Source of the DNA: Psammoneis japonica
Taxonomy: Eukaryota
Direction of reading: 5' to 3'
Assembly: GCA_008632985.1 (NCBI GenBank)
Contig: QPGO01000222.1
Location: forward strand, 49,205-69,204
Length of the DNA stretch: 20,000 nucleotides
Shown here: one piece after another, positions 1 through 20,000 of the stretch
Layout: each line of letters begins with the position of its first letter
How positions within the stretch are numbered: the stretch's first letter is position 1
Position numbers and translations under genes: made by a program
Notes under the pieces: model-generated
The model's input: only the letters and a program-made list of their open reading frames with translations
Told to the model about the DNA's origin: nothing
The model's database searches: none

Positions 1-700
1 CAATGCAAGGCATCTTTTGAGCAAAAGGCTGATCAGCTCTTCCCTGTGGGCCAAGCATTTGCAAGTTGTGCCCAACTGGCAAAGGCTGCAAAGCTTTTTT
101 TGGACATGTGGGGTGTCATGAGTTGTCACAAGCAAAAACGAGTAAATTGTTTCCACTCTGTGAGCACCAAGAAAAGCAAAAGAAAGGCTCAGCCGCTTGC
201 TGAGAACTCCAGCAGTCGCAATGTGGGCCCATCCTTGAAAAAGCAATGCAAATGCCCACTTCACATTGAGCACAGTTTTGTGAGGAAAGTCAAGGATCCA
301 TTCACAGGAAAGGTTTGGCCTGACATGTTTTGCAATGTCAAGATGACAGGTGCCGTGTACAAACACACGTGTGACCTCCACACGGTTTCCCATCGAGTGG
401 CAAAGCAAGCAAGTGGCTCAATTCAACCGAGCTCAGAGGGGCTCCAAAGCACCATTGATGATCTCAGGCTTGAACCTTGCATGAAAGCCGAGGATCTGCG
501 TCCAAAGCTCCTCAAGCATTTGCCGTTGCACATCGGATGCAAAATTCATCAGAACGCAAAATTCATCAGCAACTTTCGCAGCCTTGTCAGCAAATGGACA
601 TTGCAGCATGAGGAAGACAAAGAGGGTGTTGTGTGAAGATCTGCAGCAACTTGCATCAAAGCACCCCATTGCATCAGATGAACTTGTTGTGCCAACCTTT
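1..700 (+). mobile_element. Degenerate Mutator/MULE-like transposase N-terminal fragment (FAR1/WRKY-GCM1-type Zn-finger region), running in from the window edge
   Basis: Frame 1 is open from base 1 to 636 (..LFPVGQAFASCAQL..W..; CKCPLHIEHSF..PDMFCNVKMT..YKHTC). The CxC...HxC spacing resembles MULE-associated Zn fingers from recall, not from a search. The reading continues frameshifted after ~625 (LCEDLQQLASK). No DDE domain is visible. Almost no TpA, with excess Cys/His. Confidence 0.45.
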
Positions 701-779
701 GGCATCAGATGGTGTCAGCATGCATGCTGTGCAAGCCCCGTTTGGCACCTTCAACATTCCATGGGTGGAGAAGTGGCAG

Positions 780-1380
780 TTCCAGCAGCAGCAGGTGCAG
801 TGCAAAGTGCCTTTCTCACAGCCTGACTGGTGCTGTGTCCCCTTCTTGTCACCCGACTGTAGAAATTGCAGTGGCAGCAGCAGAGGCTCTTGCAGCAGCA
901 GCAGCCAGTGGCAGTTGTTGCCCCACCAGAGTGGCAAGTGACAACAGCCACAACTGCAGTTGCAGCAGCATTCACAGCGGGAGTGCCGCAGTGATGCCCT
1001 GTCCCCTTCTCATCACCCAGCTGGTGCCGCACCCCCTTCCAGCCACACAACAATCTGAGTGGCCATGGGGACAGATGTCAATGCAAAACAAATGGGTTGA
1101 GAAAACAAAGAAAGAGAGTCAGCGCTGAGAATGTGTGTGAGATGTCCACCACAGCACTGCACCTTGTCCCCTTGTTGTCCTCAACCAACCAAAGGAATCC
1201 CTGTCCACAGCAGTTGCAGCTGCAGCAGCAGTCACATCAACAGCAGTCACAGCAACAGTTTTCGCCCCCCCACAAGAGTCGCAAGTAAAAACAGCCACAG
1301 CAGCAGCTGTGGCAGCAGTTGCAGCAGCAGTTGCAGTGGCAGCACCACATCCCCTTCTTGTCACCCAAGAGTTGATGCAG
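780..1380. repeat. Degenerate CAG/GCA-rich tandem repeat region, period about 165-185 bp
   Basis: A tgtccccttcttgtcaccc-like motif recurs near 836, 1000, 1165 and 1348, separated by (gca)n/gcagtt runs. Confidence 0.6.
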
Positions 1381-2130
1381 AGAGTGCGTGCTGGATGTGC
1401 TCACCATGGAGCATGAGATGGAGATTCAGAGACAACAAGCAACAAGCTGGGTGCGCGCACAAATTCTGCCTCTGCAAGAAGCCATTGAGAAATGCAGCAG
1501 TGCTGGAAGAGAGAAACAGCATCAAAGACAGCACACTCACTCACCAGAACTCGCCAGTTCAACAACATTGTCGGCAGCAGCAGGGAAAAACACTCCAAAC
1601 ACACCAGCCAGCCAAAAGGAGTGAAAACACCAGAAACTCCGGAGGTGCAAACAAACAAACACCAACATCTCACTCAGCGTGCATTGGCTCCCACCCACAC
1701 AGTGTCATCCCAGTGACATTCAATTTATGAACGGGGCCAAGTCTCCACAATGCTGCAGTGCTGTTCTCAGCGAGCGATGACTTGGACGACGCTTCCAACT
1801 GCCGTGTGTGCTGTGTGCCGGGCATGCGCTTGTGTTGACGCGTGTTTTTTTTTTGTTCTTTTCGCGGTGCTCGACAACACTGCATTATTATGGCATACAA
1901 GCACAGTTACGTCTCGTACACATGATGCGATTTATGCTTTTATATAATTCTGAAAATGTCAGGTAATGATGATGTCGTTTGCAATCTTCAGGACCTCATA
2001 AATCTGAATGCATAATGCACTGACCAAGCGTCTGGCCGTGGGGAGTTTGGGGCGGGAAAATTCGAGAACCTGATGGACGACAGACGTGGTGCGGATTTGG
2101 TGCGCGCGCGCGGAAGTCCGTGGTGCGGAG

Positions 2131-2259
2131 TTAGACTCTACCGGTACTCTCTACTCTATCTCTAGCTAGTAGCTACAAGGAGTACGGTAGAGAGTAGCTA
2201 GCTAGAGAGAGTAGAGAATATAGAGAGTAGCTAGCTCTAGCTAGAGTAGAGAGTAACTC
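2131..2259. repeat. Low-complexity TAG/CTAG/AGAGTAG tract with imperfect inverted symmetry
   Basis: Left arm actctctactctatctctagctag is complementary to right-arm ctagctagagagagtagag units; very TpA-rich. Confidence 0.75.
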
Positions 2260-3060
2260 TCATGAGGAGCCAAGGTTTCGTTCCGGCGCACCAAGATGCC
2301 CGGAGAAAGATGCGAGCTGACAACCAACGACGCAAGGATTTTGCACATCTCTGAAGGGAAGACAGAGCATTGTCGTTCAGACCTGAGCTGGGTCCAGAGG
2401 ATGAGGGTGGTCCCAAACATTGTGCTGGCACATGACATCGGAGAGTTTCTCAATGCTTCGGTCAACACCTGTGCCGGCATGCAGCGGTGAACTCACTGTG
2501 CCGCTTGTCCGTCCTGAGAACCCAAGCATTGACATTCCCCTCAAGGAATGATGGTTTTCCGGTCTTTGTGGGGACCCACGCGGAACTTGACAGTGAAGCT
2601 TCTTTTGATCGTCATGATTGCTTTCATTGGATGCTGGGCAGGCTGTGCGACGGCTTCGCGATAATGACACTGTCGTTGACCTGTGGCGAGCCCAGCTTTT
2701 CGCATGTTGTTTCCCAAGATTGACTTCGTTTTTCTTGCACGATGTCGCGCTTGTTGCAAGGTATCTTGGATTCAATGCCGACGCATCGGAAGCACGGCCT
2801 TGCCTTCCAGTTGAAACAGTTGGTGACACTCCCCCGAAGTGGGACGACACGACTCCAATCTATCTACGCGCAACCATTCTTTGTTTTCGAGACACTGTTG
2901 AGTACGGTAATTTCATCCCGGTGAATGTCTACGTCACATTCGAACTCGTGATATGCTTGTATCATCTTTCTAGTTAACCTTTTCCAAGATATGTATCACA
3001 CGAAGATCGACACTCGAGCTGTTGCACCAAGTAATTCACTCATAACGTCAAAAGAAAACA

Positions 3061-3992
3061 ATGGCAAAGACATCAACTGAGTGCTCGAGGGAGTGGAGGG
3101 CCCGCCTAATCGAAGCGAAAGGACTCGAAGGGTACCAGAAAGAACGTCAGCTTGAAGTCAAAGAGTGTCGCAAGAAGATAGAGGAGGAACAAGAAAACGG
3201 GACTTCAGAATTCCTTTCTGCAGTCAAGGTGCATCTAAAGGACCATGGGAAGGAGCGTGGACACCTTCTGGGTAGCCAAGCGGAGGAGCGCAAGCCTTAT
3301 GCGAGATTGATTGGTGCGAAACCGACCGCAACAGAGAGCCACGAACGTCATCACGACGAGGACTTGTCGGATGGTGAGATACTCGAGCAGGAGCACGAAC
3401 CCGCCTTGGTGGACGAAGAGGAATGCTCTGACGACGAGGAAACTAGTGTCGGAAACCTTCGTGGACCCAACAAGCACTGGAAAAAGGGCGACAGGATAGT
3501 TTTACCCTTTACCACGGAGCGTCGAGAGGTCTGCCCTGACTTGAACAATCATGCCTAAATCTCCACGGTTGGATCGAGGCTTTTCCATGAAGCGTTTGAA
3601 ACCTACGTGCCGGTAGAGAAAAAGAAGAGTCTCGGTTTGATCTTAGGACAAGTCGCAGATGACTTGGACAGTAGGGCTCTTCAGAGCCTGCGGTACATTC
3701 TAAATCACCGCAACAGTGTTCAGCATAAAAGTGGTCGTACCGGTTGAACAACCGTGAGTTGTACGGTAAGGAGTTGGTATTTGTCCTGGATAAACTCTGT
3801 CCGGAGTGGGAATTGATACCCGACAACCCCGAAGCGCAACGCGTCTACGAAAACAACGCGATGACGCATACGCAGAGCTTGATGATGCAAATGCAGAGAT
3901 TAGGCGGCTTGGGCGAGAGCTGTCCAGCCGCCAACATGATGCCGACTACCACCGACCGACAAAGCGCCCCCGCCGAGATGACTATTGAATAA
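3061..3992 (+). pseudogene. Disrupted orphan ORF with charged/acidic N-terminus and an RNxxxH motif
   Basis: ATG ORF 3061-3558. The same frame stays open past TAA 3556-3558 to TGA 3745-3747 (..LQSLRYILNHRNSVQHKSG..). Protein-like sequence then continues in another frame to 3992 (LNNRELYGKELVFVLDKLCPEW). Confidence 0.4.
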
Positions 3993-4269
3993 TAGATTGC
4001 CAGCATTATCGCGCATCAGATGGGATACTACTTCTGTTGTAATTAACTTCTATAACTAACGTCTCTGGAATCAGTTGTAACACATCATGTACGGTATGTA
4101 TAGCAATACTGCACGAGTGTGATTTTAACGAATCGACTACTTTTTTGAGGCGTCCGGTTGGACACTAGGATAACACCATTCTCGAGCCACGGCTTTACCT
4201 ACCGTTACTGGATCGGTGGGAAGGAGAGACTTGCGCTGAGAAAAGCCTCCTCAATAAATTTCCCAATAA

Positions 4270-4375
4270 TCAAAAGCAAAGACTGGATGGACAGAACGCT
4301 TGTTCCTTGGTTTGTTTGCCTCTTGCGATTCTCCTGACGGTTTTCGCCTTTCTTCTTTCCGCGCTTGTCCTTCTG
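4270..4375 (-). repeat. Diverged partial duplicate of the NOP2 3' coding end
   Basis: acagaacgcttgttccttggttt...tttcttctttccgcgcttgtcctt at ~4291-4372 matches ~4678-4758; it encodes [11 protein letters not shown] vs [11 protein letters not shown]. Confidence 0.85.
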
Positions 4376-4577
4376 ATATAGTTTTGTTTGTGATTATAAG
4401 AGTTGCGTGTGGTTCACAAGTCTCCAGTGTCGGTGCGGATTCGCTCTTTAGATGTAGTGTTAACATGTGCTATATCTTGCATAAACCTAGTACCATATGC
4501 ATTATTGGAAGCTTTGAAACGCTTTGGACTTTCTTAGGGCTGTTATATAGTTTCGAGTGTACTCTGTCAAAGGCACT

Positions 4578-6520
4578 CTAGTTTCCCGTATCCTGCTTCT
4601 TTGGTCTTCTCGGTTTCATCGTCTTGGCGTTCAACTTCTTCAACTTTTTCTTTTTGTTTTCAGTGGAGACTGGAGGGACAGAACGCTTGTTCCTTGGTTT
4701 CTTTTCCTCTTGGGCTTCCTGTTGGTGTTCGGCTTTCTTCTTTCCGCGCTTGTCCTTGTTTGAATGTTCCTTGCTAGACTTTTTCTTGTCCTTGTCATTG
4801 GCTACTGTTTCGCTTGGTAGTGCCTCATCGACATTGGTCTCTTCCTGTACGGTATCCTGAGGCTGACGAGGGCCATTTAGCTTTTGAATTCGTGCAACAA
4901 AGAATCCATCCATATTGTGAACATGAGGGTAGAAACGCCGTGTCAAAGCCAAGGATGGGTGAAAACGTTTGTTCTGGTATCGCGTGAAACCAGGTTTGCC
5001 TGTGCGACGCAATAACAAAAGTATGTGAGACGGCTATTGTTGAATAGCAACATGGACTTGCTAAACACAACACAACACTATTTGGTCCCCGTACCAAATT
5101 CCAATTCCGCTGGAACAATCTTAATGTTGCGTTTCGTCAAGGCATATTGGACTACTTCTTCGTTTTCTGCCACTGCAACACTACAAGTCGAGTATACCAT
5201 GAATCCACCTCCTTTGGCCTTGGGGTTGAGCGCGTCAATAGCACTCAGCAACAATTCCTTTTGCAAATGCGCCGTGCGGTTAATATCCGCCATGGTGCGC
5301 TGCACCTTGACGCTGGAATCTCTGGAAATGACACCCAATCCGGAGCATGGAGCGTCGAGCAAGACCCGATCAAACTTGTTTTTAAACATGCTACCGAGTT
5401 TGCGTCCATCCACGACGGACGTTACTACATTTTTGACTCCTAGGCGGTGCATATTGGCAACCGTTGCTTTTTGTCGGTCTGCCTTGAGATCATTGGCAAC
5501 AATGTAGCCCGTGTTTGCCATGAGCTGAGCAATATAGGACGTTTTTCCACCCGGCGCCGCAGACATGTCCAAGACCTTTTGATTCCGCTGTGGATCTAGA
5601 GCCAAGACGGGGCACATGCTGGCGGCACTCTGCAACATGTACTGGCCACTCAAAATACTCGGGAGTAGCACCAATCGGAATATTGGAAGCCTGAATCAAC
5701 AATCCCACTTTGGACCAGGATGCCAATGGATCAAGCGTAACGCCACGTTTCATGAGAGACGCCGCTAGATCCTTACGTCGAACCTTGAGTGTGTTGGTCC
5801 TTACGACAAGAGGCGAGTGACATCCGAAGCCATGACAAACTCCCATGCTTCCGACGGCCCAAGCATGCTGACAATGTACTCCATCAACTCTGGCAAGTAT
5901 CCATAGAGTTCCGCCATGTCAGCAATCAACTGATCCATGTATTCACTCCGAGACCGGTGTGTCTGACGACGTGTTTTAAAGTCGGCCAACACTTCTAAAA
6001 TTCCTTCAATCCGCTCGCGCAATTCCGAAGGCGGTACGACTCTGTCTTGTTCTTCTTCCAACTCTTGCGCCGTTGGTAAACGAAATTTGGCTGTCGACTG
6101 ATTAATCATTCTCTGGTATTCGTCGTGTGCCTCCTTTTCCTCTAATTCCATTTCTTCGTCTACCTGTTGCGCTTGACGTTCCACTTCCAAGAGTTCATCA
6201 TCATCTTTGTCACTATGTTCCTCGTCCGAGGACAACAACAATTGCGACTTGTTTTTGCTGCCTTTTGGCTTGAGCCATGATGCGTTTTCATCCGTATAGA
6301 AGTTTCCCTCCTTTTCATCGCTACTGCTGCTTTCATCGTCACTGCTACTTTTCTCGTCCGCCGTTTTGGTTTTTGGTTTTTTGACTTGTGGCTCATCCTC
6401 GCTGGACGTTTCGTCGTCACTGCTGCTGTTTTCTTCTTCTTCTTCTGACGACGACGAAGACGAGTCTGTTTCCTCGTCCGAGCGCTCGTGATCGACCTTC
6501 ATGGTACGCTTTTTCTTCAT
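4578..6520 (-). CDS. NOP2: 25S/28S rRNA cytosine-C5 methyltransferase NOP2/NSUN1 (two exons: 6520-5095 and 4999-4578)
   Basis: Acidic N-terminus, then [57 protein letters not shown] and [15 protein letters not shown], with a Lys-rich tail. Apparent 1-bp loss at ~5812 and 1-bp gain at ~5653. The start codon is uncertain (6520, or 6571). Confidence 0.95.
5000..5094 (-). other. Spliceosomal intron of NOP2 (95 nt, phase 1)
   Basis: G|GTACGG...GCACAG|GC; splicing restores [11 protein letters not shown]. Confidence 0.9.
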
Positions 6521-6882
6521 GGAACAATTGCAGAAACTGAGTGTTACTTTGGCGAGCTTGGGCAACGACATGTACACAAAAATGAGGAACAGCTCTTGGC
6601 TCTTGGCGGCATTTTTTGATGGCTCTGCAGCGGCCACATGGGGAGACGGACAGGCCAAAAAATCTTTATATCATCTACGTTCACAGTGATCTTTCATTGG
6701 AATCTAATGCGTAGAATTCTACAAGAAGATCCAGTACTGAGCGCCATGGTGGGCTTTGCCCCATCCGAAAAACACACTCGTGCTGTTGTCATGATGCGGT
6801 CATTGTATGCCGCGCCGTCCACATCCGACATGATATCACCTTGCCAACAGTTTGTAGCTATTACACCAAATTACACGCAACA
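6521..6882. promoter_or_regulatory. Putative bidirectional promoter between divergent NOP2 and DPAGT1
   Basis: About 360 bp separate the head-to-head start codons; inferred from geometry only. Confidence 0.5.
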
Positions 6883-8546
6883 ATGATGCTTCAGCCACGA
6901 CGAAGCAACATTGTACTTGCCCTTATTCCAATGATGCCACCAGCGTTGTTGTTGGCTCGGCAGCTACCGGCGAATCCCTTGCCGATTTTCGTCGGGTGGA
7001 TTCGCTTTTTCATGAGCAGCTCTTCTCGTGTGGGAAACGACAAGGATGCCATTCCACCCGTAGAGTCACAGCTCTTGGCATACCTCACCATGGCTGTACT
7101 CGGATACATTGCTACAAACAACTTGGTACCGAAAATAAAGGTAAGAGGCTGATTGAGTACTCTACTGTTTTTTTTTGTTTGCTCTGACCTGAAGCAAAGC
7201 GCAAAAACTGAACTTTGTTTTGTTCCAACTTGAACTACTTAGGCCTATACATTACGAAAGGGTATATCAGGAAGGGATTTGGGGAAAACGTGGGACTTCC
7301 ATTGCAGATAAGGAAATGTAAGGGCAACATCCAGACATGGGATCTTACTCGGTTGTTGTCTCGTTCTCCATCGCGAAACGTATTTTTTGCTCAGAGCTTT
7401 GCCTCTTTTGTTTTCAACAGACCGGAAGCTCTTGGCATTGTCCCTGGTGCAATATTTCTTATTTGTCTAATTGTCTGCCTTGTTGGATATGCCACATCTC
7501 ATCCCGACAAGGTAAGCATACGAAAGAAAAAGCAAAGGCCGTTGTCCTTTTTCTTGAAAGAATATCTGATGTAACGTCTCTTTTTGTAGTTGCTGGACTG
7601 TAATTCAGCACTGCTCTCCATTTGCTTTATGCTATTCCTGGGCTTTACAGACGACGTCTTGGAATGGCCTTGGCGATACAAGTTGCTCTTGCCCTTTTTT
7701 GCATCGCTGCCTCTCCTTTGTTGCTATGACGGTAGCACCACAATTGTCATTCCCATTCCACTCCGTCAATTGCTGGCAAGTGATGGAAACTTTACCTTAC
7801 TCGGTGCAATTCTAAGAGACCACTTTTACATGCCAGCCGATGGGTCCAATATTGATTTGGGACTCTTGTATAAGCTTTACATGTTGGCGCTTTCTGTCTT
7901 TTGCACCAATGCAATCAATATTTACGCCGGCATTAATGGATTGGAAGCTGGTCAATCGTTTGTCATTGGTTGCGCCGTGCTTGTACATAACTTGATGGAG
8001 ATATCGTTGCACGACCGAAACGATCGAATCCGGGAGAACCACTTGTTTTCTTGCATGACCATGCTGTCCTTTGTGGGAGTCACATTGGGATTGTTGCGAC
8101 ACAATTGGTATCCGGCCTCCGTCTTTGTGGGGGATACGTACTGCTACTTTGCAGGCATGACCTTTGCGGTGGTGGGGATATTGGGGCACTTCAGCAAGAC
8201 TCTGCTCTTGTTTTTCATTCCGCAAGTACTCAATTTTGTATGGTCGGTTCCTCAACTCTTTCGATTTGTACCGTGTCCAAGACATCGATTGCCCCGTTTG
8301 AATGAAGAGACGGGTCTCATGGAAGCGTCAACGTTTCCTTGTGAACCACATCAATACAAGCTACTCAAGAAGAAACCGGACGACACGGCAGTTCCAAACA
8401 TGACTGTGATTAATCTATGTTTACAACTATTTGGGCCAATGAATGAACGAACACTTTGCATTGTGCTCTTGGGATTTCAAATATTATGTTGTGCCTTTGG
8501 GCTCTTCCTGAGATATCGCATTGCACAGTACGTATTTGAAGAGTAA
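6883..8546 (+). CDS. DPAGT1: UDP-GlcNAc:dolichyl-phosphate GlcNAc-1-phosphotransferase (exons 6883-7140, 7243-7317, 7421-7511, 7590-8546)
   Basis: Motifs [63 protein letters not shown] and CPRHRLP. Three GT-AG introns (7141-7242, 7318-7420, 7512-7589). Exon 2 is 75 nt where 74 is needed, implying one extra base in ggggaaaac at ~7285. Confidence 0.95.
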
Positions 8547-8595
8547 AAGAAAAGCTAAACAAAATGGAATGGGAATATTTTTACATTGACCACAG

Positions 8596-8990
8596 CATTA
8601 CGGGACGGAAGCAGCGTCTCGCAGCAGATATACCGGACAGCCCTATGGTACCTAGCTAGCTATATTGTAGTAGAGATCTGGCATTCTACCCCGCTAAAGT
8701 GAATTCTGTTTCCACCACACAACCTAACAAACAAAGCATACATGCCACCAATCGTTGGTCATCTTTCTGCTTAACTGCTTCTCCAGTTCATTACGAGACG
8801 GAAGCAGCGTCTCGCTGCAGATGTTCCGGACAGACCCTACCTATGGTACCTACTAGCTAGCTACATAGTAGTAGAGTTCTGGCATTCTTCTTCACTAAAG
8901 TGAGTTCTGTTTCCACCGCACAACCTAATACAAAAAGCATAGATAGCACCAATCGTTGCTTATTTTTCTTCTAAACTGCTTCTCTAGTAC
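8596..8990. repeat. Diverged tandem duplication (~195 bp x2) between the convergent DPAGT1 and glutaredoxin 3' ends
   Basis: cattacgRgacggaagcagcgtctcgc...ctaaagtgaRttctgtttccacc...caccaatcgttg...aactgcttctc starts at ~8596 and again at ~8790. Confidence 0.9.
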
Positions 8991-10090
8991 TTTCTCGATT
9001 TCGTTGCTGTACCCCACTGCTTGAGCAACTCCTCCAGTTCTCCGTTTTCTTCCATTTCCTTGAGGATATCTAAACCACCAATCAAGTCTCCCTCGACGTA
9101 AAGTTGCGGGGTAGGTTGGCCAATCAGAGTACTTCTTAAGCCCTTGGCGTACTTCTTCATCCTCCAAGATATTGAAAGAATCGTAACTGGCACCGTGCTT
9201 GTCCAACAACTCAACGGCCTGTCGCGAGAAACCACATTGAGGCGCAGACGGCAGGCCCTTGAGAAAAAGCATGATACGATGCCGCTTTACGAGTTTGCTC
9301 AAGCGTTCGTCCAGTGATTCCTCCTCTTGCTGACTTGGTGCACCACTAGAGCCACCTGCTTGTTCATCAACTCCAAGCTGAGCAGCTAGATTACCGCTCT
9401 CGGAATCCTCCATCATTTCCTTGACGATATCCAATCCACCAATCAACTCGCCATTGACATAAAGCTGCGGATACGTCGGCCAATCTGAAAACTTCTTTAA
9501 CCCTTGACGGACCTCTTCATCTTGCAATATATCAAAAGATCCAAACTCGACCTGGTTTTCTTGCAACAACTCACAATTTGCCGTGAAAAGCCACAACGAG
9601 GAGCCGTTGGATTGCCCTTCATGAAAAGCATCACGGTTGTACTAGTCGTCAAGCGCTTCAACTTGTCATTCAGATCCTCTTTTTCTTCAGTCAGAGCAGC
9701 AGCTGGTGCAGCATTTGAAGGTGCGGCCATGCTGTTTGTGCTGCCGTTCTTGATTCTTTCCTCCAATGCCTTGACTGCTTGCGTGACGAGCGCGACATCT
9801 TCGACCCCATCTAGTTTCTGTACTAGCGTATTTGTAGACGAATCCAAAAGACACACGGTAGGAATCACAGTGACGCCCAGTTCTTGAACCAAGTCAGGAC
9901 ACGCTTCAGCCTCGACACGGCCGAATTGAATGCCGGATGACGAAATGGATGCGAGCGCCTGCATCACACTGTAGATATCGCCGCCCTCAACCGATCCGTC
10001 GTGCCATGATGCGCCAAAGAGTAGCACAAGACCACCGGTGACAGGTGGTGGTAGCTCTGAAATGTCAACGAGACGAGACGAAGAAGACAT
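8984..10090 (-). CDS. GLRX3: Multidomain monothiol glutaredoxin (thioredoxin-like domain + two CGFS Grx domains; GLRX3/PICOT/Grx3-4/GRXS17 class)
   Basis: N-terminal Trx-like region (LLFGASW...FGRVEAE..P..V..IPT), then [37 protein letters not shown] and [37 protein letters not shown]. Apparent 1-bp loss at ~9572 and 1-bp gain at ~9110. Confidence 0.93.
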
Positions 10091-12798
10091 AATGATGTTG
10101 TGCTCTCTTTGGGGTTGACGATGGATTCGTTCTTCCTTTATTCTTTATTTTGTCTTTGTCTTGTTTTGTCTCACGCTTGCTCTTGCTCTCACGCGAGAGA
10201 AATCGAAATAAATTTTCGCCTGCCCATCGCCCGCTTCGGGTTGTTTCATAATGTTGTTTTTGGCGATCGGACATTTTGGCAACAGTTGTCTAGTATGATA
10301 TTCTCGTATGTTTCTACGATGAACCCGATGTCACAAAAAATCAAACCCACTCGTGTTTGAAACTTGAAAACAAGGTCTCTTCACGCAAAAACCACACAAT
10401 CTCACGATGCTTTCAATCACATCCACAATGTCCAAACAAACAATGAGATACAACCTTTCTTCCCGCACCGTTCCAATGGAGAGCATGGGGCGTGCTCGCA
10501 TGAGCGTCGGCGACAAACGCAGCAGGCTGTTGACCGAAGACGAGGTTTCCCGCGACATGAAGCTTTCGACAAGCGGACGTCCTTCGAAACGTCTCCAATG
10601 GCAGTCATCGGTTCAGTTGAGCGTCATTCCAAGCAAACACGATGCCTCCGATGTGTGCTTGCTGGACGAATTGACAAGCATTGATGCATCCTCAACAACA
10701 TCCGAGCATGAATCACGACAAGGCATTTCGAAACCATCTCGTCTGGAAGTTCAGCCGGAGCTTTCAGACTGGTCACCGACATGCTTGGGTTCAGACGAGT
10801 CGTCATCGCTACTCCGATGTTACAATGAGCACTCTCAGCACGATCACTTTGCAAGCATTGTGCAACAGATTGCCAGCCAGTCTTCAAGCGAATGCCTGTT
10901 CATCGATCCGAGTTCTGGTCACAAGAGGATGTTGCGGCACACATGCAGTGCGGAACTTGGTTCACGCAAACGTCGTCGGACTTCCAACAAGCAAGATGAT
11001 GAGGTCGTTCTTGTTGGTTCCAGTCACGAGGAGACTTGTGACAACGGAAACAATCATCTGGCATTCGGCTGGGGTCGCCCAAAGCCTTGCTCATGTGTGA
11101 ACCACATCTGCTTTCCTCGCACGCGTCGAGACCTCCACCCAAAGACTGTCCGTGCCCCGAGGAAACGCCGCATGGATGAGCACTCCAAGCCTGACCATTC
11201 ATTGCACGTCATGGAGAAGCTGTCTGTTCAAGAATCATCGAATGAACGTTTCACAGACACCTTCTCCGGTGACAAAAGGAAGCATCAGCGCAGAGGGTTG
11301 GGTTCTCGGAAACGACGCATTGTCACACGTGATCAAGATGACGCATGCGGTGGCATTGCCGGCAGACTCAGCGCTGGTCCTGAGGAGAGCAGTCAGAGGG
11401 TGAGTCATTTTGTCGTTTGCATTGTCACTCCTTTTCGTTGACAATTGACCAAAACCTGTTTCTACTTCTACTTTACTCTCTACAATCACAGCTTGCACCT
11501 GACACATCGAGTCAACACGAGACATCTTCCGTTGCGTCTGTTGCGGCAGAGAATCCTCTCGATGCGATTCTTTTAGATGATGATCACGTCCAAGAGGTGA
11601 CGGTTCCTGCAGCGGCGAGTGCGGTGCAAGATGACCCTTCCGATTTCGATGCGTTTGGTCCAGATCATCACAATGACTTGCACGAAGTGTTGATTGGTGA
11701 ACAACAATTGGAAGGGTCTCACTTGCCTGCTTCGGACAAGGATGGTCCCTTCCACAATGTGGCATCAGCAATGGCGGTGCCTTCGGCGTGCGAGGTTCCG
11801 TCTGACGATGAGGCTTCCGTTCCAAACCAACACAATGGCGTGCCTGAAGCCTTGGGAGAAGATCGAGAAGAAGAAGAAGAAGAAGGGCATGTCGAAGTGC
11901 GGGAATCCCTCACTGCGGATCACCGTGCTTTTAACAGCGACGATCCTATCCACGAGACGGCGTCAGCAGTGGTGGCACCTTCGCCACAAGAGATCCCTTC
12001 CGACGAAGGCAATGAGCGCATTCCAGACCAGCACGTTGGTGGAGACGGGTTGATGGTGGAGACGGAACAGGCAGAAGATCAGCACGCTGTTTCACCCACA
12101 TCCCTCATTACGGATTCCGTCATTCCAAGGCGGTCTGCTTGGCTCAAAGAAGCTGTGGGAAGCGTGCATGTCCTCTCTGCTCATGGGAGAACTGTTCGAA
12201 GGTCCGCTAGAATCTTGAACCGGCGACATGGCACCGTGGGGTAGTTCGAGTGCTTGAGGGAACGAAGAAATACATGGGAAGAGAGAAAAGTGGTAATTAG
12301 AGATAGAGAGAAAGGAGCGGGAGTTAGAGAAAGGGAGTGGAGCATTTAGAAAAGAGAGAAAAGGAATCGGGGAAATGGCGAGGCGGGACGAAGACTGGGT
12401 TCGGAAAGGACTGTAGGCAGCAACACTCACACTTGCTTTTGTTTGCTTCACCAGTTCCAAAGGGAAGAATTGAGTCTGGCGGCGGGTTTTCTGACCATGT
12501 GCTGGATCCGTGTGCATGAATCATCATGGTGCAGTTGCTTTTGTGATCGTGTCGATCGGCAAGTCTCGGGTGAGCAGCGACATTCTATCGAGTACAGAAT
12601 CTTCGTGGCGCCTGCAGTTCGGCCCACATTACACACAACACGTACCTTTACATTCAACACTACGGATTCAGCTTTGTGGGGGATTGAAAACTCAAAGCCC
12701 GATTCGATGATTCCTTTTTGGGCCTGAACAAGCACCATTGGCCGTGGACAGTGTGCTGCTTGCACCGTAGACGGATTCAGCATTGGTTTTGCGTGAAG
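9976..12798 (+). repeat. Segmental duplication copy A (TpA-poorer copy; runs into the assembly gap)
   Basis: Colinear and near-identical to 16104-18945, from tatcgccgccctcaacc to ggttttgcgtgaag. Confidence 0.97.
10407..12244 (+). CDS. Orphan, probably disordered ~581-aa protein, copy A (exons 10407-11399 and 11492-12244); may be non-functional
   Basis: Two long ORFs are joined in frame by a phase-0 intron 11400-11491 (GTGAGT...CACAG). Basic clusters (RKRRRT, RKRR), an acidic region and C-terminal RRSA/RRSAR motifs. No recognisable domain. Confidence 0.55.
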
Positions 12799-13736
12799 NN
12801 NNNNNNNNNNNNNNNNNNNNNNNNNNNNNNNNNNNNNNNNNNNNNNNNNNNNNNNNNNNNNNNNNNNNNNNNNNNNNNNNNNNNNNNNNNNNNNNNNNNN
12901 NNNNNNNNNNNNNNNNNNNNNNNNNNNNNNNNNNNNNNNNNNNNNNNNNNNNNNNNNNNNNNNNNNNNNNNNNNNNNNNNNNNNNNNNNNNNNNNNNNNN
13001 NNNNNNNNNNNNNNNNNNNNNNNNNNNNNNNNNNNNNNNNNNNNNNNNNNNNNNNNNNNNNNNNNNNNNNNNNNNNNNNNNNNNNNNNNNNNNNNNNNNN
13101 NNNNNNNNNNNNNNNNNNNNNNNNNNNNNNNNNNNNNNNNNNNNNNNNNNNNNNNNNNNNNNNNNNNNNNNNNNNNNNNNNNNNNNNNNNNNNNNNNNNN
13201 NNNNNNNNNNNNNNNNNNNNNNNNNNNNNNNNNNNNNNNNNNNNNNNNNNNNNNNNNNNNNNNNNNNNNNNNNNNNNNNNNNNNNNNNNNNNNNNNNNNN
13301 NNNNNNNNNNNNNNNNNNNNNNNNNNNNNNNNNNNNNNNNNNNNNNNNNNNNNNNNNNNNNNNNNNNNNNNNNNNNNNNNNNNNNNNNNNNNNNNNNNNN
13401 NNNNNNNNNNNNNNNNNNNNNNNNNNNNNNNNNNNNNNNNNNNNNNNNNNNNNNNNNNNNNNNNNNNNNNNNNNNNNNNNNNNNNNNNNNNNNNNNNNNN
13501 NNNNNNNNNNNNNNNNNNNNNNNNNNNNNNNNNNNNNNNNNNNNNNNNNNNNNNNNNNNNNNNNNNNNNNNNNNNNNNNNNNNNNNNNNNNNNNNNNNNN
13601 NNNNNNNNNNNNNNNNNNNNNNNNNNNNNNNNNNNNNNNNNNNNNNNNNNNNNNNNNNNNNNNNNNNNNNNNNNNNNNNNNNNNNNNNNNNNNNNNNNNN
13701 NNNNNNNNNNNNNNNNNNNNNNNNNNNNNNNNNNNN
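12799..13736. other. Assembly gap (938 N)
   Basis: Run of N. Confidence 1.
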
Positions 13737-15244: not shown

Positions 15245-16103
15245 CCAACTGCCTCGAACAATGTGTGAATGCAGCTACTCGCGCAATGGTTCTTCCCAGT
15301 GCAAAGCTAGCAGACTCGAGGCATTGCACAGTTGAGGATTTGAGCTTTGGAAGTTGCTTGAAAAGATTGAGCTCGATGCGTCGATTCAGAATCATCAAAA
15401 GCGGTATCAACGCCACGCATTGTGACACAGCCGTCCCAATTGCCACGCCCGCAGCTCCCCAAAGAATCAAAATGGGGTTCAATGCTATGTTCACTGCGTT
15501 TCATAGTATACTGCAAAGCAGCGGTGTCTTTGTATCACCAAGTCCTCAAAGGTGACAGACAATTTCAGAAGTTAGCTGGTCGGGATAGCAGCGCATAACA
15601 ACATGATCTTTCGTCCTTGCTTAGATTGGGCCAGCTCTTTGGAGTACCTACCACGAAATACACTGTTGGAAACAAGCCACAAGGTTGATACAGGTGCATC
15701 AAGAGCCCGAGCTCTCATGTAGGATATGGCAGTCGCTGCCATATCACTATCTTTCGATACGCCCATGGCGCTCAGGATTTGTCCGGCAAAAGCAGCGAAT
15801 GCAAACAACTGAAGCAATCCCACTACGAGAGCCAACAGCAAGGCTGTTAAAAGTGCTGCTGAAAGTTCTTCTGTATAGATCATAAGACGGATATGGGCAA
15901 ATGCTTATTGTTAGGTCAAGTTCAAACGTAACAACTCACGAGACAGCATTGCACGCAATACGAACCTGCTTCTGCTTTGCTCGCCTTGCTGCCTCTATAA
16001 GCCCCATACTTGGATGCAATGAGCGAAATTGTTGTTTTTGACAAGGGAGAATTGTATAGCTTGGAAACAGCAGCTTGTGATGCTCGTGCCACTCCCACAC
16101 CAC
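15245..16103 (-). pseudogene. MATE-family (DinF/DTX-like) transporter pseudogene, truncated at both ends
   Basis: GVGVARASQAAVSKLYN; ALLLALVVG..A..YMRARAL.AP; VFRG-LGDTKTPL; NIALNPIL..GAAGVAIGTAVSQ; LGRTIA. Introns at 15871-15965 and ~15545-15651. In-frame TGA at 15501-15503. Similarity ends near 15250. Confidence 0.85.
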
Positions 16104-16218
16104 TATCGCCGCCCTCAACCGATCCGTCGTGCCATGATGCGTCAAAGAGTAGCACCAGACCACCGGTGACAGGTGGTGGTAGCTCTGAAATGTCAACGAG
16201 ACGAGACGAAGAAGACAT
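16104..16218 (-). pseudogene. Duplicated 5' fragment (~38 codons) of the glutaredoxin gene
   Basis: [38 protein letters not shown] is near-identical to the translation of 10090-9976. Confidence 0.95.
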
Positions 16219-16560
16219 AATGATGTTGTGCTGACGATGGATTCGTTCTTCCTTTATTTTGTCTTTTGCCTGCTCTTGCTCTCGACTCCTCTCGACATGA
16301 GACAACGCGAGAGAAATCGAAATAAATTTTCGCCTGCCCATCGCCCGCTTCGGGTTGTTTCATTATTGAAAATATCTCCTTAAGTCACGGATAACGGTAT
16401 ATTTCATTGCTTAAATGTTGTTTTTGGCGATCAGACATTTTGGCAACAGTTGTCTAGTATGATATTCTCGTATGTTTCTACGATGAACCCGATGTCACAA
16501 AAAATCAAACCCACCGTTTTCAAACAAGATCTCTTCACGCAAAAACCACACAATCTCACG

Positions 16561-18396
16561 ATGATGCTTTCAATCACATCCACAATGTCCAAACAAACAA
16601 TGAGATACAACCTTTCTTCCCGCACCGTTCCAATGGAGAGCATGGGGCGTGCTCGCATGAGCGTCGGCGACAAACGCAGCAGGCTGTTGACCGAAGACGA
16701 GGTTTCCCGCGACATGAAGCTTTCGACAAGCGGACGTCCTTCGAAACGTCTCCAATGGCAGTCATCGGTTCAGTTGAGCGTCATTCCAAGCAAACACGAT
16801 ACCTCCGATGTGCACTTGCTAGACGAATTGACAAGCATTGATGCATCCTCAACAACATCCGAGCATGAATCACGACAAGGCATTTCGAAACCATCTCGTC
16901 TGGAAGTTCAGCCGGAGCTTTCAGACTGGTCACCGATATACTTGGGTTCAGACGAGTCGTCATCGCTACTCCGATGTTACAATGAGCACTCTCAGCACGA
17001 TCACTTTGCAAGCATTGTGCAACAGATTGCCAGCCAGTCTTCAAGCGAATGCCTGTTCATCGATCCGAGTTCTGGTCACAAGAGGATGTTGCGGCACACA
17101 TACAGTGCGGAACTTGGTTCACGCAAACGTCGTCGGACTTCCAACAAGCAAGATGATGAGGTCGTTCTTGTTGGTTCCAGTCACGAGGAGACTTGTGACA
17201 ACGGAAACAATCATCTGGCATTCGGCTGGGGTCGCCCAAAGCCTTGCTCATGTGTGAACCACATCTGCTTTCCTCGCACGCGTCGAGACCTCCACCCAAA
17301 GACTATCCGTGCCCCGAGGAAACGCCGCATGGATGAGCACTCCAAGCCTGACCATTCATTGTACGTTATGGAGAAGCTGTCTGTTCAAGAATCATCGAAT
17401 GAACGTTTCATAGACACCTTCTCCGGCGACAAAAGGAAGTATCAGCGCAGAGGGTTGGGTTCTCGGAAACGACGCATTATCACACGTGATCAAGATGACG
17501 TATGCGGTGGTATTACCGGTAGACTCAGCGCTAGTCCTGAGGAGAGCAGTCAGAGGGTAAGTCATTTTATCGTTTGTATTATCACTCCTTTTCGTTGACA
17601 ATTGACTAAAACCTATTTCTACTTCTACTTTACTCTCTACAATCACAGCTTGCACCTGACACATCGAGTCAACACGAGACATCTTCCATTGCGTCTGTTG
17701 CGGCAGAGAATCCTCTCGATGCGATTCTTTTAGATGATGATCACGTCCAAGAGGTGACGGTTCCTGCAGCGGCGAGTACGGTGCAAGATGACCCTTCCGA
17801 TTTCGATGCGTTTGGTCCAGATCATCACAATGACTTGCACGAAGTGTTGATTGGTGAACAACAATTGGAAGGGTCTCACTTGCCTGCTTCGGACAAGGAT
17901 GGTCCCTTCCACAATGTGGCATCAGCAATGGCGGTGCCTTCGGCGTGCGAGGTTCCGTCTGACGGTGAGGCTTCCGTTCCAAACCAACACAATGGCGTGC
18001 CTGAAGCCTTGGGAGAAGATCGAGAAGAAGAAGAAGAAGGGTATGTCGAAGTGCGGGAATCCCTCACTACGGATCACCGTGCTTTTAATAGCGACGATCC
18101 TATCCACGAGACGGCGTCAGCAGTGGTAGCACCTTCGCCACAAGAGATCCCTTCCGACGAAGGCAATGAGCGCATTCCAGACCAGCACGTTGGTGGAGAC
18201 GGGTTGATGGTGGAGACGGAACAGGCAGAAGATCAGCACGCTATTTCACCTACATCCCTCATTACGGATTCCGTCATTCCAAGGCGGTCTGCTCGCTTAG
18301 AGAAGCTTGGGAAGCGTGTATGTCCTCTCTGCTGATGGGAGAACTGTTCGAAGGTCCGCTAGAATCTTGAACCGGCGATATGGCACCGTGGGGTAG
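16561..18396 (+). CDS. Orphan protein copy B (exons 16561-17556 and 17649 onward)
   Basis: Intron 17557-17648 (GTAAGT...CACAG). Indels near 18290-18310 shift the frame to a stop at 18335; the stop equivalent to copy A is at 18394-18396. Confidence 0.55.
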
Positions 18397-18920
18397 TTCG
18401 AGTGCTTGAGGGAACGAAGAAATACATGGAAGAGAGAAAGTGGTAATTAGAGATAGAGAGAAAGGAGCGGGAGTTAGAGAAAGGGAGTGGAGTATTTAGA
18501 AAAGAGAGAAAAGGAATCGGGGAAATGGCGAGGCGGGACGAAGACTGGGTTCGGAAAGGACTGTAGGTAGTAACACTCATACTTGCTTTTGTTTGCTTAC
18601 CAGTTCCAAAGGGAAGAATTGAGTCTGGCGGCGGGTTTTCTGACCATATGCTGGATCCGTGTGTATGAATCATCATGGTGCAGTTGCTTTTGTGATCGTG
18701 TCGATCGGAAGTCTCGGTGAGCAGCGATATTCTATCGAGTACAGAATCTTCGTGGCGCCTGCAGTTCGGCCCATATTACACACAACACGTACCTTTACAT
18801 TCAACACTACGGATTCAGCTTTGTGGGGGGTTGAAAACTCAAAGCCCGATTCGATGATTCCTTTTTGGGCCTGAACAAGCACCATTGGCCGTGGACAGTG
18901 TGCTGCTTGCACCGTAGACG

Positions 18921-20000
18921 GATTCAGCATTGGTTTTGCGTGAAGTACTTGATGACCTTGAATAACTCTACTAGTCCGGAAGTTTTCTGTTGTGGTTTCA
19001 AGTAATCTGTGAATGTGTTAGGATATTAGCACATGGCGAGTTTTGAAGCTAACTGTTTTTTCGAATACATGATGAAAGCTCGTACCTTTATACTCATTCT
19101 GTAGGGTTTGTTTATTCAGCGTGTAGTCCAACAAGCATCAACTTTGTCCAACAGTTCTCGCCTTTTGTAGTTTATGTAGTTCGGTCTTATTGGTCGCTGC
19201 TCCCACCTACTGCATCGAAATTGACGAGAGTCGGGAACCCTTTGCAAATGAACACTAAGGACTCTTCAGAGCGAGATCAATCGTCTTGACCGCAGAGATA
19301 GCATGTAATGAGACTGGTAGCGATTAGTGGCGTATGGCTGCGGATAATCTGTGTGAATGTGTTATGAAATTAGGCATATGGCGAGTTTTGAAGCTAATCG
19401 TTTTTCAAATACATGATGAAAGCTCGTACCTTTACACTCATTCTGTAGGGTTTGTTTATTCAGCGTGTTGTCCACCGATTCAGCATTGGTTTTGCGTGAA
19501 GTACTTGATGACTTTTAATAACTCTACTAGTCGGGAAGTTTTCTGTTGTGGTTTCAAGTAGTCTGTGAATGTGTTAGGATATTAGGCACATGGCGAGTTT
19601 TGAAGCTAACTGTTTTTCGAATACATGATGAAAGCTCGTACCTTTATACTCATTCTGTAGGGTTTGTTTATTCAGCGTGTAGTCCAACAAGCATCAACTT
19701 TGTCCAACAGTTCTCGCCTTTTGTAGTTTATGTAGTTCGATCTTATTGGTCGCTGCTCCCACCTACTGCATCGAAATTGACGAGAGTCGGGAACCCTTTG
19801 CAAATGAACACTAAGGACTCTTCAGAGCGAGATCAATCGTCTTGACCGCAGAGATAGCATGTAATGAGACTGGTAGCGATTAGTGGCGTATGGCTGCGGA
19901 TAATCTGTGTGAATGTGTTATGAAATTAGGCATATGGCGAGTTTTGAAGCTAATCGTTTTTCAAATACATGATGAAAGCTCGTACCTTTACACTCATTCT
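18921..20000. repeat. 556-bp tandem repeat (at least 2 units, continuing beyond the window) with an internal ~125-bp sub-repeat
   Basis: gattcagcattggttttgcgtgaag occurs at 18921 and 19477. The subunit gtgaatgtgtta...atggcgagttttgaagctaa...gatgaaagctcgtaccttta recurs near 19005, 19345, 19560 and 19900. Confidence 0.95.

Follow-up and report, generated by a model that had tools for sequence, protein, structure and literature searches.

What process could remove nearly every TA dinucleotide from a stretch of DNA and then stop within a few bases? The question is raised by the first 1885 nucleotides (nt) of a 20,000-nt stretch of contig QPGO01000222.1 (GenBank assembly GCA_008632985.1, positions 49,205 to 69,204 of the forward strand), which is referred to here as the window. 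An initial annotation, made from the letters alone, had pointed to a transposon-derived tract at 1-1885 with only five TA, at positions 143, 358, 860, 1286 and 1726, where about 100 would be expected. A count finds TA at precisely these five positions and at no others, against 108.8 expected from base composition, an observed/expected ratio (o/e) of 0.05. The explanation favoured here, to which a probability of about 75% is assigned, is that the tract is a remnant of a MULE (Mutator-like element) DNA transposon in which TpA has been driven near saturation to CpA and TpG by local hypermutation.

The same annotation had TA returning abruptly at 1886, and the next TA are indeed at 1886, 1889, 1896, 1908 and 1917. 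Each of 2000 mononucleotide shuffles of the tract contains 83-137 TA. The Poisson probability of five or fewer, given 108.8, is 7e-40, and it is 1e-20 when the o/e of the window background, 0.57, is taken as the reference. Elsewhere in the window, 2681 N-free segments of 1885 nt contain 11-106 TA, and the lowest of them is at 10316, in a hypermutated duplicate that is described below. Over the last two thirds of the tract, from 637 to 1885, there are 3 TA vs 66.9 expected. CpA (256 vs 140.6 expected) and TpG (175 vs 96.2 expected) both display an o/e of 1.82, and AA (1.12), AT (0.74) and TT (1.34) are not counted as depleted. CpG, which had already been suspected of being reduced, has an o/e of 0.34 (42 vs 124.2 expected). 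The shortfalls of TA (104) and of CG (82) add up to roughly the excess of CA plus TG (194). The CpG depletion does not reach as far as the TA loss: it ends near 1727, some 160 nt short of the point where TA returns. The tract extends past the 5′ end of the window, thus its 1.9 kb is a lower bound.

Such a depletion might reflect no mutation process at all, and come instead from selection or composition (codon usage, UA avoidance in RNA, TA-targeting nucleases or transposons) or from an assembly or base-calling artefact. TpA is mildly under-represented across the whole window, at the background o/e given above, and the only run in which the tract is found may be the source of the assembly; both facts are in line with this explanation. 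However the depletion is 10-fold stronger than in genes. Comparable TpA depletion in genes is what the initial annotation had named as an argument against its own reading, and this was checked inside the window, where six housekeeping exons (NOP2-type methyltransferase, GlcNAc-1-P transferase, glutaredoxin/thioredoxin and MatE) have TpA o/e values of 0.41-0.85, not near 0.05. The depletion is also found in all reading frames and in non-coding repeats, it stops within a few bases at 1886, and conserved residues of an encoded protein are changed. In addition, both states, mutated and unmutated, are seen among contigs of the run that were built independently. An origin by selection or artefact is considered very improbable.

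The effect of the depletion on stop codons is marked. Six-frame translation of the tract gives 79 TGA and only 4 TAA/TAG (3 TAA, 1 TAG), and three control segments have 56-80 TAA/TAG each. Because the TAA and TAG stops have been erased, 35 open reading frames (ORFs) of at least 50 amino acids (aa) are listed for positions 1-2400, with lengths of 50-211 aa, overlapping one another and on both strands. This should be taken as a warning for annotation: TpA-erased DNA, devoid of TAA and TAG, displays long spurious ORFs in six frames that can be mistaken for genes.

One of the frames, at 1-636 of the forward strand (211 aa, with its 5′ end open), has recognizable relatives. A full HMMER (phmmer) scan of 1.84 billion representatives finds 145 homologues at a cut-off of E≤1e-3, and 50 of these also pass E≤1e-10; the best has an E value of 2.6e-46 with 49% identity, and some homologues are 824-1596 aa long. 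In 9 of 20 long homologues, PF21056 (ZSWIM1-3 RNaseH-like, a MULE-derived fold) is found 70-100 residues past the part that aligns with the window, which bears out the earlier view of the tract as transposon-derived; in only one of the 20 (P0003) is the match above the Pfam curated cut-off (28.1 vs 27.2 bits). In the language-model Atlas, the neighbours of the best long homologue (P0002) are all clusters with PF10551 MULE (scores 0.91, 0.90 and 0.90), and this neighbourhood supports the MULE assignment as a lead, not as proof. Judged from these matches, the family probably belongs to the MULE/Mutator superfamily.

A tblastn search of the window with the 145 homologues places 136 of 136 high-scoring segment pairs (HSPs) within positions 1-700. 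Thus, of the gene, the window includes only an N-terminal portion that lies upstream of the catalytic domain. By the homologue HSPs, the MULE-type DDE (RNaseH-like) catalytic domain is not found in this remnant within the window, and in 637-1885 there are no HSPs beyond position 700 and no Pfam match. Five ORFs of the tract, including the frame at 1-636, were compared with Pfam and none gave a match. A search for longer homologous proteins returned none with the ORF at 1-636, and only three metagenome proteins with the family alignment. Around 1886-2254 no terminal inverted repeat or target-site duplication is seen, and the left end of the tract lies beyond the window.

In the family alignment of this ORF, residues C50, C85, H122 and C124 are conserved. 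A structure model built on 24 sequences has a pLDDT (predicted local distance difference test) of 86.4. Only one PDB chain reaches Z≥5, with model residues 11-126: the DNA-binding domain of AFT2 (4lmg_A; VIA match, Z 5.5, root mean square deviation 3.5, 71 aligned), a weak match that is below the reliable level and has a Foldseek E value of 0.34. Foldseek gives no match at E≤0.001, and a PDB sequence search with the family alignment gives nothing meaningful. The AFT2 domain has a WRKY-GCM1-type zinc finger fold. Zinc fingers of this type are the kind found ahead of MULE transposase domains.

The homologues can also be used to read the direction of change. At the 11 columns of the family where Tyr is the consensus, the window has the residues C H C H F K C Y H H W, i.e., Tyr once, His four times, Cys three times and other residues three times, so that His or Cys occupies 7 of the 11. 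In a pooled comparison of 122 homologues that have at least 5 of these columns, His plus Cys account for 96 of 1025 cells, Tyr for 413 and Phe for 149, and none of the 122 has more than 50% His plus Cys at these columns (binomial p 1.5e-5). Whether homologues share the Cys and His residues had been set beforehand as a test of the idea; they do not share them, and 7 of 11 Tyr columns are altered in the window. The eight consensus-Ile columns are occupied in the window by A V I M M T I I. The homologues have Tyr where the window has His or Cys, thus the direction is TA to CA or TG, the opposite of that in fungal repeat-induced point mutation (RIP).

The initial annotation had given two examples of peptides that would read better after conversion back to TA. 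For MFCNVKMT, proposed to derive from IFYNVKIT, the family consensus is I-F-Y-x-V-K-I-T (column counts I55, F54, Y63, V84, K80, I92 and T103), as proposed. The other, LHIEHSF from LYIEYSF, stands in part: the His at position 91 is aligned with Y75, and the His at position 88 is aligned with E30/K17, not with Tyr. When CA and TG are reverted to TA in silico, the fit to the family becomes better at 21 of 62 non-synonymous sites, at 11 of them by at least four-fold. Of 310 control transitions, 47 give a better fit, in 15 cases by at least four-fold (p about 0.001 vs the reversions).

Other versions of the tract are present in contigs of one public run, and these may be paralogues, alleles or strain variants. 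Sixteen differing places are the best supported, and a further 111 are spread across positions 1-12700. Four adjacent double changes, in which CA in one version corresponds to TG in another, are found at 675/6, 872/3, 1048/9 and 1373/4; they are best explained by a single ancestral TA that was resolved both ways. A TA/CA difference is found at 860. CA/CG differences at 118, 490, 663 and 1065 are CpG decay, and the remaining best-supported places are three others. On the evidence of the homologues and, independently, of these versions, TA is shown to be the ancestral state.

A process with the polarity of RIP would have to make the TA-poor state ancestral, with TA gained in the other copies by C>T at CpA. 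The differences between the two duplicates described below, TA in one and CA or TG in the other, do involve the dinucleotides used by RIP, and diatoms have DNMT4 enzymes that fall in one group with the fungal RID family (PMC9998398). However the homologues have Tyr and Ile where the tract has His, Cys and Met, and the adjacent CA/TG doubles require a TA ancestor; the RIP-like polarity is contradicted on both counts. RIP also enriches TA, and cannot yield 1.9 kb with five TA. Moreover the duplicate that would be the RIPped one has a TA o/e of 0.49, the ordinary level of genes in the window. This polarity is therefore given hardly any credence.

The same type of change is found between the two copies, A and B, of a repeat that is duplicated farther along in the window. 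The full duplicates, at 9976-12797 and 16104-18944, are 98-99% identical, with 59 differences in 2773 aligned bases, 45 of which belong to the A:T>G:C transition class. At 40 sites copy A has CA (23) or TG (17) where copy B has TA, and the reverse is found at none. The 38 TA of copy A are all common to copy B, which has 78. Within the span 10644-12627, 40 of 48 differing places are TA in B and CA or TG in A, and other single differences number six; thus TpA in copy A has changed about 200 times faster than other positions. In the co-duplicated flanks, none of the 12 TA sites on the left and none of the 4 on the right is changed (0/16 in total). The tract had been proposed as the end state of the process seen between these duplicates, and the 40:0 direction of TA to CA/TG agrees with this. 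At one site (16813-4) copy A has TG and copy B has CA, which suggests at least one change in copy B too.

The TA o/e is 0.19 in copy A and 0.49 in copy B, and CpG in copy A is normal (o/e 0.91). At nine listed places where copy A has CA or TG, contigs at 3-7x single-copy depth have TA; summed contig depth is not copy number, but TA in these contigs fits with copy A being the derived state. The base that follows the changed adenine is not random. Changes are found at 32 of 74 sites with a pyrimidine at +1 vs 8 of 52 with a purine (p 0.00095), and by base the counts are C 18/39, T 14/35, G 5/31 and A 3/21.

The TpA hypermutation is real and is specific to this dinucleotide. It is confined to repeat and transposon DNA, and the flanks are unmutated: the TA o/e is 1.29 just past 1885, and in copy A 40 of 63 sites are changed inside the span vs 0 of 16 in the flanks. 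Targeting in this window appears to follow the locus and not homology.

Gene-conversion bias, UV photoproducts and avoidance of TA-targeting nucleases were considered as well and set aside, as none of them predicts a pattern that is sharply bounded, limited to TpA and present in one copy only.

Several other features of the duplicates should be noted. Exon 1 of the glutaredoxin gene lies in the left flank; this exon of the thioredoxin-glutaredoxin gene and the region upstream of it were included in the duplication (9976-10250 and 16104-16414), and a truncated second copy of the exon is left at about 15922-16359 (-). An assembly gap of 938 N, at 12798-13735, directly follows copy A, thus the right end of the repeat and of the mutated span is not visible in copy A. 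ORFs of the duplicated element have no Pfam match, and the copy B ORF has no usable match in the Atlas.

In the favoured explanation, A:T>G:C changes would be made in place, on either strand of the self-complementary TA. The likeliest candidate for the chemistry, held with less confidence than the hypermutation itself, is deamination of DNA adenine: as has been proposed for the identical signature in Bigelowiella natans, a host enzyme would convert the adenine in 5′-TA-3′ to inosine, which is read as G. What brings the deaminase to silenced or foreign DNA may be the mark, of whatever kind, that labels the element as silenced, and the target motif of the enzyme would be TAY (Y, pyrimidine), with the changed adenine preferentially before a pyrimidine. 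A second, ordinary decay of CpG to TpG/CpA would have acted on positions 1-1726, as expected for a cytosine-methylated transposon. Cytosine methylation of transposons is known from diatoms, in which they are de-repressed when DNMT5a is lost (PMC9998398), and the CpG decay of the tract would fit with this.

The consequences for the encoded protein are Tyr to His or Cys, Ile (ATA) to Met or Thr and Val (GTA) to Ala, together with loss of TAA and TAG stops. The TpA changes inactivate a gene through missense, and leave open both its own frame and many spurious ones. The dead transposase gene keeps a 211-codon open frame because its inactivation is by missense and not by nonsense changes. Run X2 (transcript-like contigs) has almost no cover over the tract and is uninformative on silencing.

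Chemistry on thymine could produce the same tract with the same locality. A TET/JBP-type enzyme would oxidise the T of TpA (to 5-hydroxymethyluracil or 5-formyluracil), or this T would be modified in some other way, and it would then mispair with G to give T>C. 5-Formyluracil mispairs with G, and TET/JBP genes associate with mobile elements. TA is palindromic, so that the CA and TG products (o/e 1.82 each in the tract, and 23 CA and 17 TG in copy A) are explained equally by changes of either base, and the context bias can be read as purine-T-A as well as T-A-Y. However a deaminase, as yet an unproven candidate, is favoured by the one experimental precedent, and a thymine-based route is regarded as unlikely.

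A-to-I hyperediting of double-stranded RNA, by an ADAR-like or ADAT-derived enzyme, should also be considered; the edited RNA would then be reverse transcribed, and the product would enter the genome by integration or gene conversion. With A>G found on either strand and U as the preceding base, the changes resemble editing preferences cited in a preprint on Bigelowiella natans (bioRxiv 10.64898/2026.01.13.699255). Against this route, the mutated element belongs to the DNA transposons, and copies A and B are genomic duplicates that align collinearly, with untouched flanks (0/16), a pattern that fits with mutation in place and not with re-integration. ADARs prefer a 3′ G, and G at +1 is rare among the changed sites (5/31); to our knowledge, ADARs are metazoan. 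In B. natans, as described in the preprint, the mutations arose in the DNA of clonal lines at single-copy insertions (bioRxiv 10.64898/2026.01.13.699255). An RNA intermediate is thus very unlikely.

Several points weigh against hypermutation of a MULE remnant by adenine deamination. All of the evidence is comparative, and no enzyme, inosine or de novo event was observed here. As TA is self-complementary, the sequence is explained equally by T>C through modification of thymine. At 41 of the 62 non-synonymous sites the reversions to TA worsen the fit to the family, and 14 of 122 reversions would create stops; thus many of the CA and TG are original, and the ancestral number of TA can only be estimated. 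Only 1-636 of the tract is tied to a transposase, and the MULE assignment leans on weak Pfam matches (1 of 20 above the cut-off) and on Atlas leads. The public run may come from the source organism of the assembly, and is therefore not independent proof against an assembly artefact. Kinship of the process with that of B. natans is assumed from the signature alone.

Coordinates of the tract, of the features that bound it and of the duplicated repeat are given in the table.

Table. Features of the window related to the loss of TpA (coordinates are those of the window; dinucleotide values are o/e where no count is given)
Feature	Position	Strand	Remarks
TpA-erased tract	1..1885	.	TA 0.05; CG 0.34; CA and TG 1.82; open at the 5′ end of the window
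Open but dead frame, probable N-terminal region of a MULE-like transposase	1..636	+	phmmer, 145 homologues; putative WRKY-GCM1-type zinc finger and helical domain
CAG/CTG-rich, internally repetitive part of the tract	637..1726	.	No detectable homology
Margin of the tract, TA-free with normal CpG	1727..1885	.	159-nt TA-free gap; CG 1.13
TA-normal spacer bounding the tract	1886..2254	.	34 TA vs 26.3 expected; TA 1.29
Second, shorter TA-free patch	2255..2662	.	0 TA vs 21.9 expected; CA 1.43; TG 1.40; CG 0.75
Copy A of the duplicated repeat, partly hypermutated span	10644..12627	.	40 of 63 TA sites of copy B changed
Copy B, little-mutated counterpart	16801..18774	.	TA 0.49; TA at all 40 sites

The repetitive part of the tract has a degenerate repeat of about 165-183 nt, with starts at 836, 1000, 1165 and 1348. 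Between the two TA-free stretches is a very TA-rich, CTAG/GTAG-rich imperfect palindromic array at 2128-2255, with arms of 25-34 nt and 71-88% complementarity; it includes a 33-nt unit present 1.9 times and the inverted repeats I1, I3 and I12. Between the main tract and the second TA-free patch there are 369 bases of normal TA content, and the patch is partly covered by the transcript-like contigs of run X2. A 160-aa ORF at 2377-2859 (-) has no Pfam match.

The identity of the host can be read from its genes. The GlcNAc-1-P transferase exon displays 62-74% identity to the 120 matches listed, and the fully legible names among these are all diatoms: Seminavis robusta, Nitzschia inconspicua, Mayamaea pseudoterrestris and Nitzschia sp. 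From these similarities the host is read as a diatom or a very close relative, and not as Bigelowiella. The GlcNAc-1-P transferase gene has three introns at 7139-7587 (102, 103 and 78 nt, GT..AG), confirmed by one spliced contig of run X2. Downstream of it, at 8596-8993, a tandem unit of about 200 nt is repeated two to three times with 84-90% identity. A further tandem array at 18918-20000, with a 556-nt period (344 + 212) and copies 77-100% identical, runs off the 3′ end of the window.

TpA-erasing hypermutation has so far been described in one 2026 preprint only, from B. natans, which is of another eukaryotic supergroup lineage; in the literature searched, no report of the signature in a diatom was found, and this preprint is the only matching description. 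A wider reading can be put forward tentatively, and is rated somewhat below even odds. A defence by TpA-directed adenine deamination, a mirror of RIP, may be common to SAR (the stramenopile, alveolate and Rhizaria supergroup; here Rhizaria and stramenopiles), and in diatoms it would act in place on silenced transposons, at TAY, with single loci chosen and not every homologous copy. As part of the same tentative reading, the window would show both the saturated end state (1-1885) and a copy caught halfway (copy A). The half-mutated duplicate is a natural experiment from which tract boundaries, motif and targeting rule could be defined. Should the host be a diatom and the mechanism be shared, a mutator resembling a genome defence would be widespread in major marine phytoplankton, and a natural, context-specific A:T>G:C DNA editor would be there to look for. 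Such a process would also explain why recognizable homologues are lacking for many diatom repeats and "orphan" genes.

The closest known system is the hypermutation in B. natans. In mutation-accumulation lines, the preprint reports that 231 of 302 nuclear single-nucleotide mutations lie in integrated giant-virus and virophage regions, and that 230 of the 231 are A>G/T>C, all on TpA, at about 6e-7 per site per generation and in some lines only; not every related insertion is affected (bioRxiv 10.64898/2026.01.13.699255). It also lists 324 coding sequences low in TpA, enriched for DDE endonuclease and reverse-transcriptase domains, and its authors (Mettrop et al., 2026) propose DNA adenine deamination, with ADAT2 as a candidate (bioRxiv 10.64898/2026.01.13.699255). 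The long-term signature is defined there as a Rho_TpA of at most 0.43 combined with a Rho_CpA+TpG of at least 1.52 over three or more consecutive 1-kb windows (bioRxiv 10.64898/2026.01.13.699255). The tract passes both thresholds, at 0.05 and 1.82, with only 1.9 kb visible, which is short of three 1-kb windows.

As in the B. natans system, the transitions are exclusively TpA to CpA/TpG and form bounded tracts in foreign or mobile DNA. The differences are in the host, the targets and the degree. B. natans is a chlorarachniophyte (Rhizaria), whereas the host genes here are diatom-like (stramenopile). Its targets are nucleocytoplasmic large DNA viruses (NCLDV) and virophages, and those here are a MULE remnant and an unclassified repeat. 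The o/e of 0.05 is near saturation, compared with a Rho of 0.45 reported for a B. natans NCLDV region. CpG decay is superimposed here, and the word "CpG" is absent from the main text of the preprint. A pyrimidine bias at +1 is found here, whereas the preprint, in its available text, describes the B. natans changes by TpA context only. In addition, only one of two near-identical neighbouring copies, copy A, is mutated here.

Similarities to other systems are less complete. The CpG o/e of 0.34, the excess of TpG and CpA and the CA/CG variants in the tract are like those of the CpG decay of methylated transposons; however CpG decay explains about 82 of the approximately 194 excess CA plus TG and none of the TpA loss, and copy A has normal CpG. 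The clustered, context-dependent transitions fixed in the genome are reminiscent of the hypermutation of retroelements by APOBEC (G>A) and ADAR (A>G). These enzymes act on cDNA or double-stranded RNA intermediates, whereas here the DNA appears to be mutated in place and on both strands, at TpA with a pyrimidine at +1. Fungal RIP shares the use of dinucleotide-specific transitions (CpA, TpG, TpA) that inactivate repeated or mobile DNA in place, but differs in three respects. RIP converts CpA to TpA and enriches TA, whereas the change of TpA to CpA/TpG erases it. RIP creates TAA and TAG stops, and here stops are removed (79 TGA vs 4 TAA/TAG). Finally, RIP mutates both duplicates, whereas in this window copy A has 40 changes and copy B about one.

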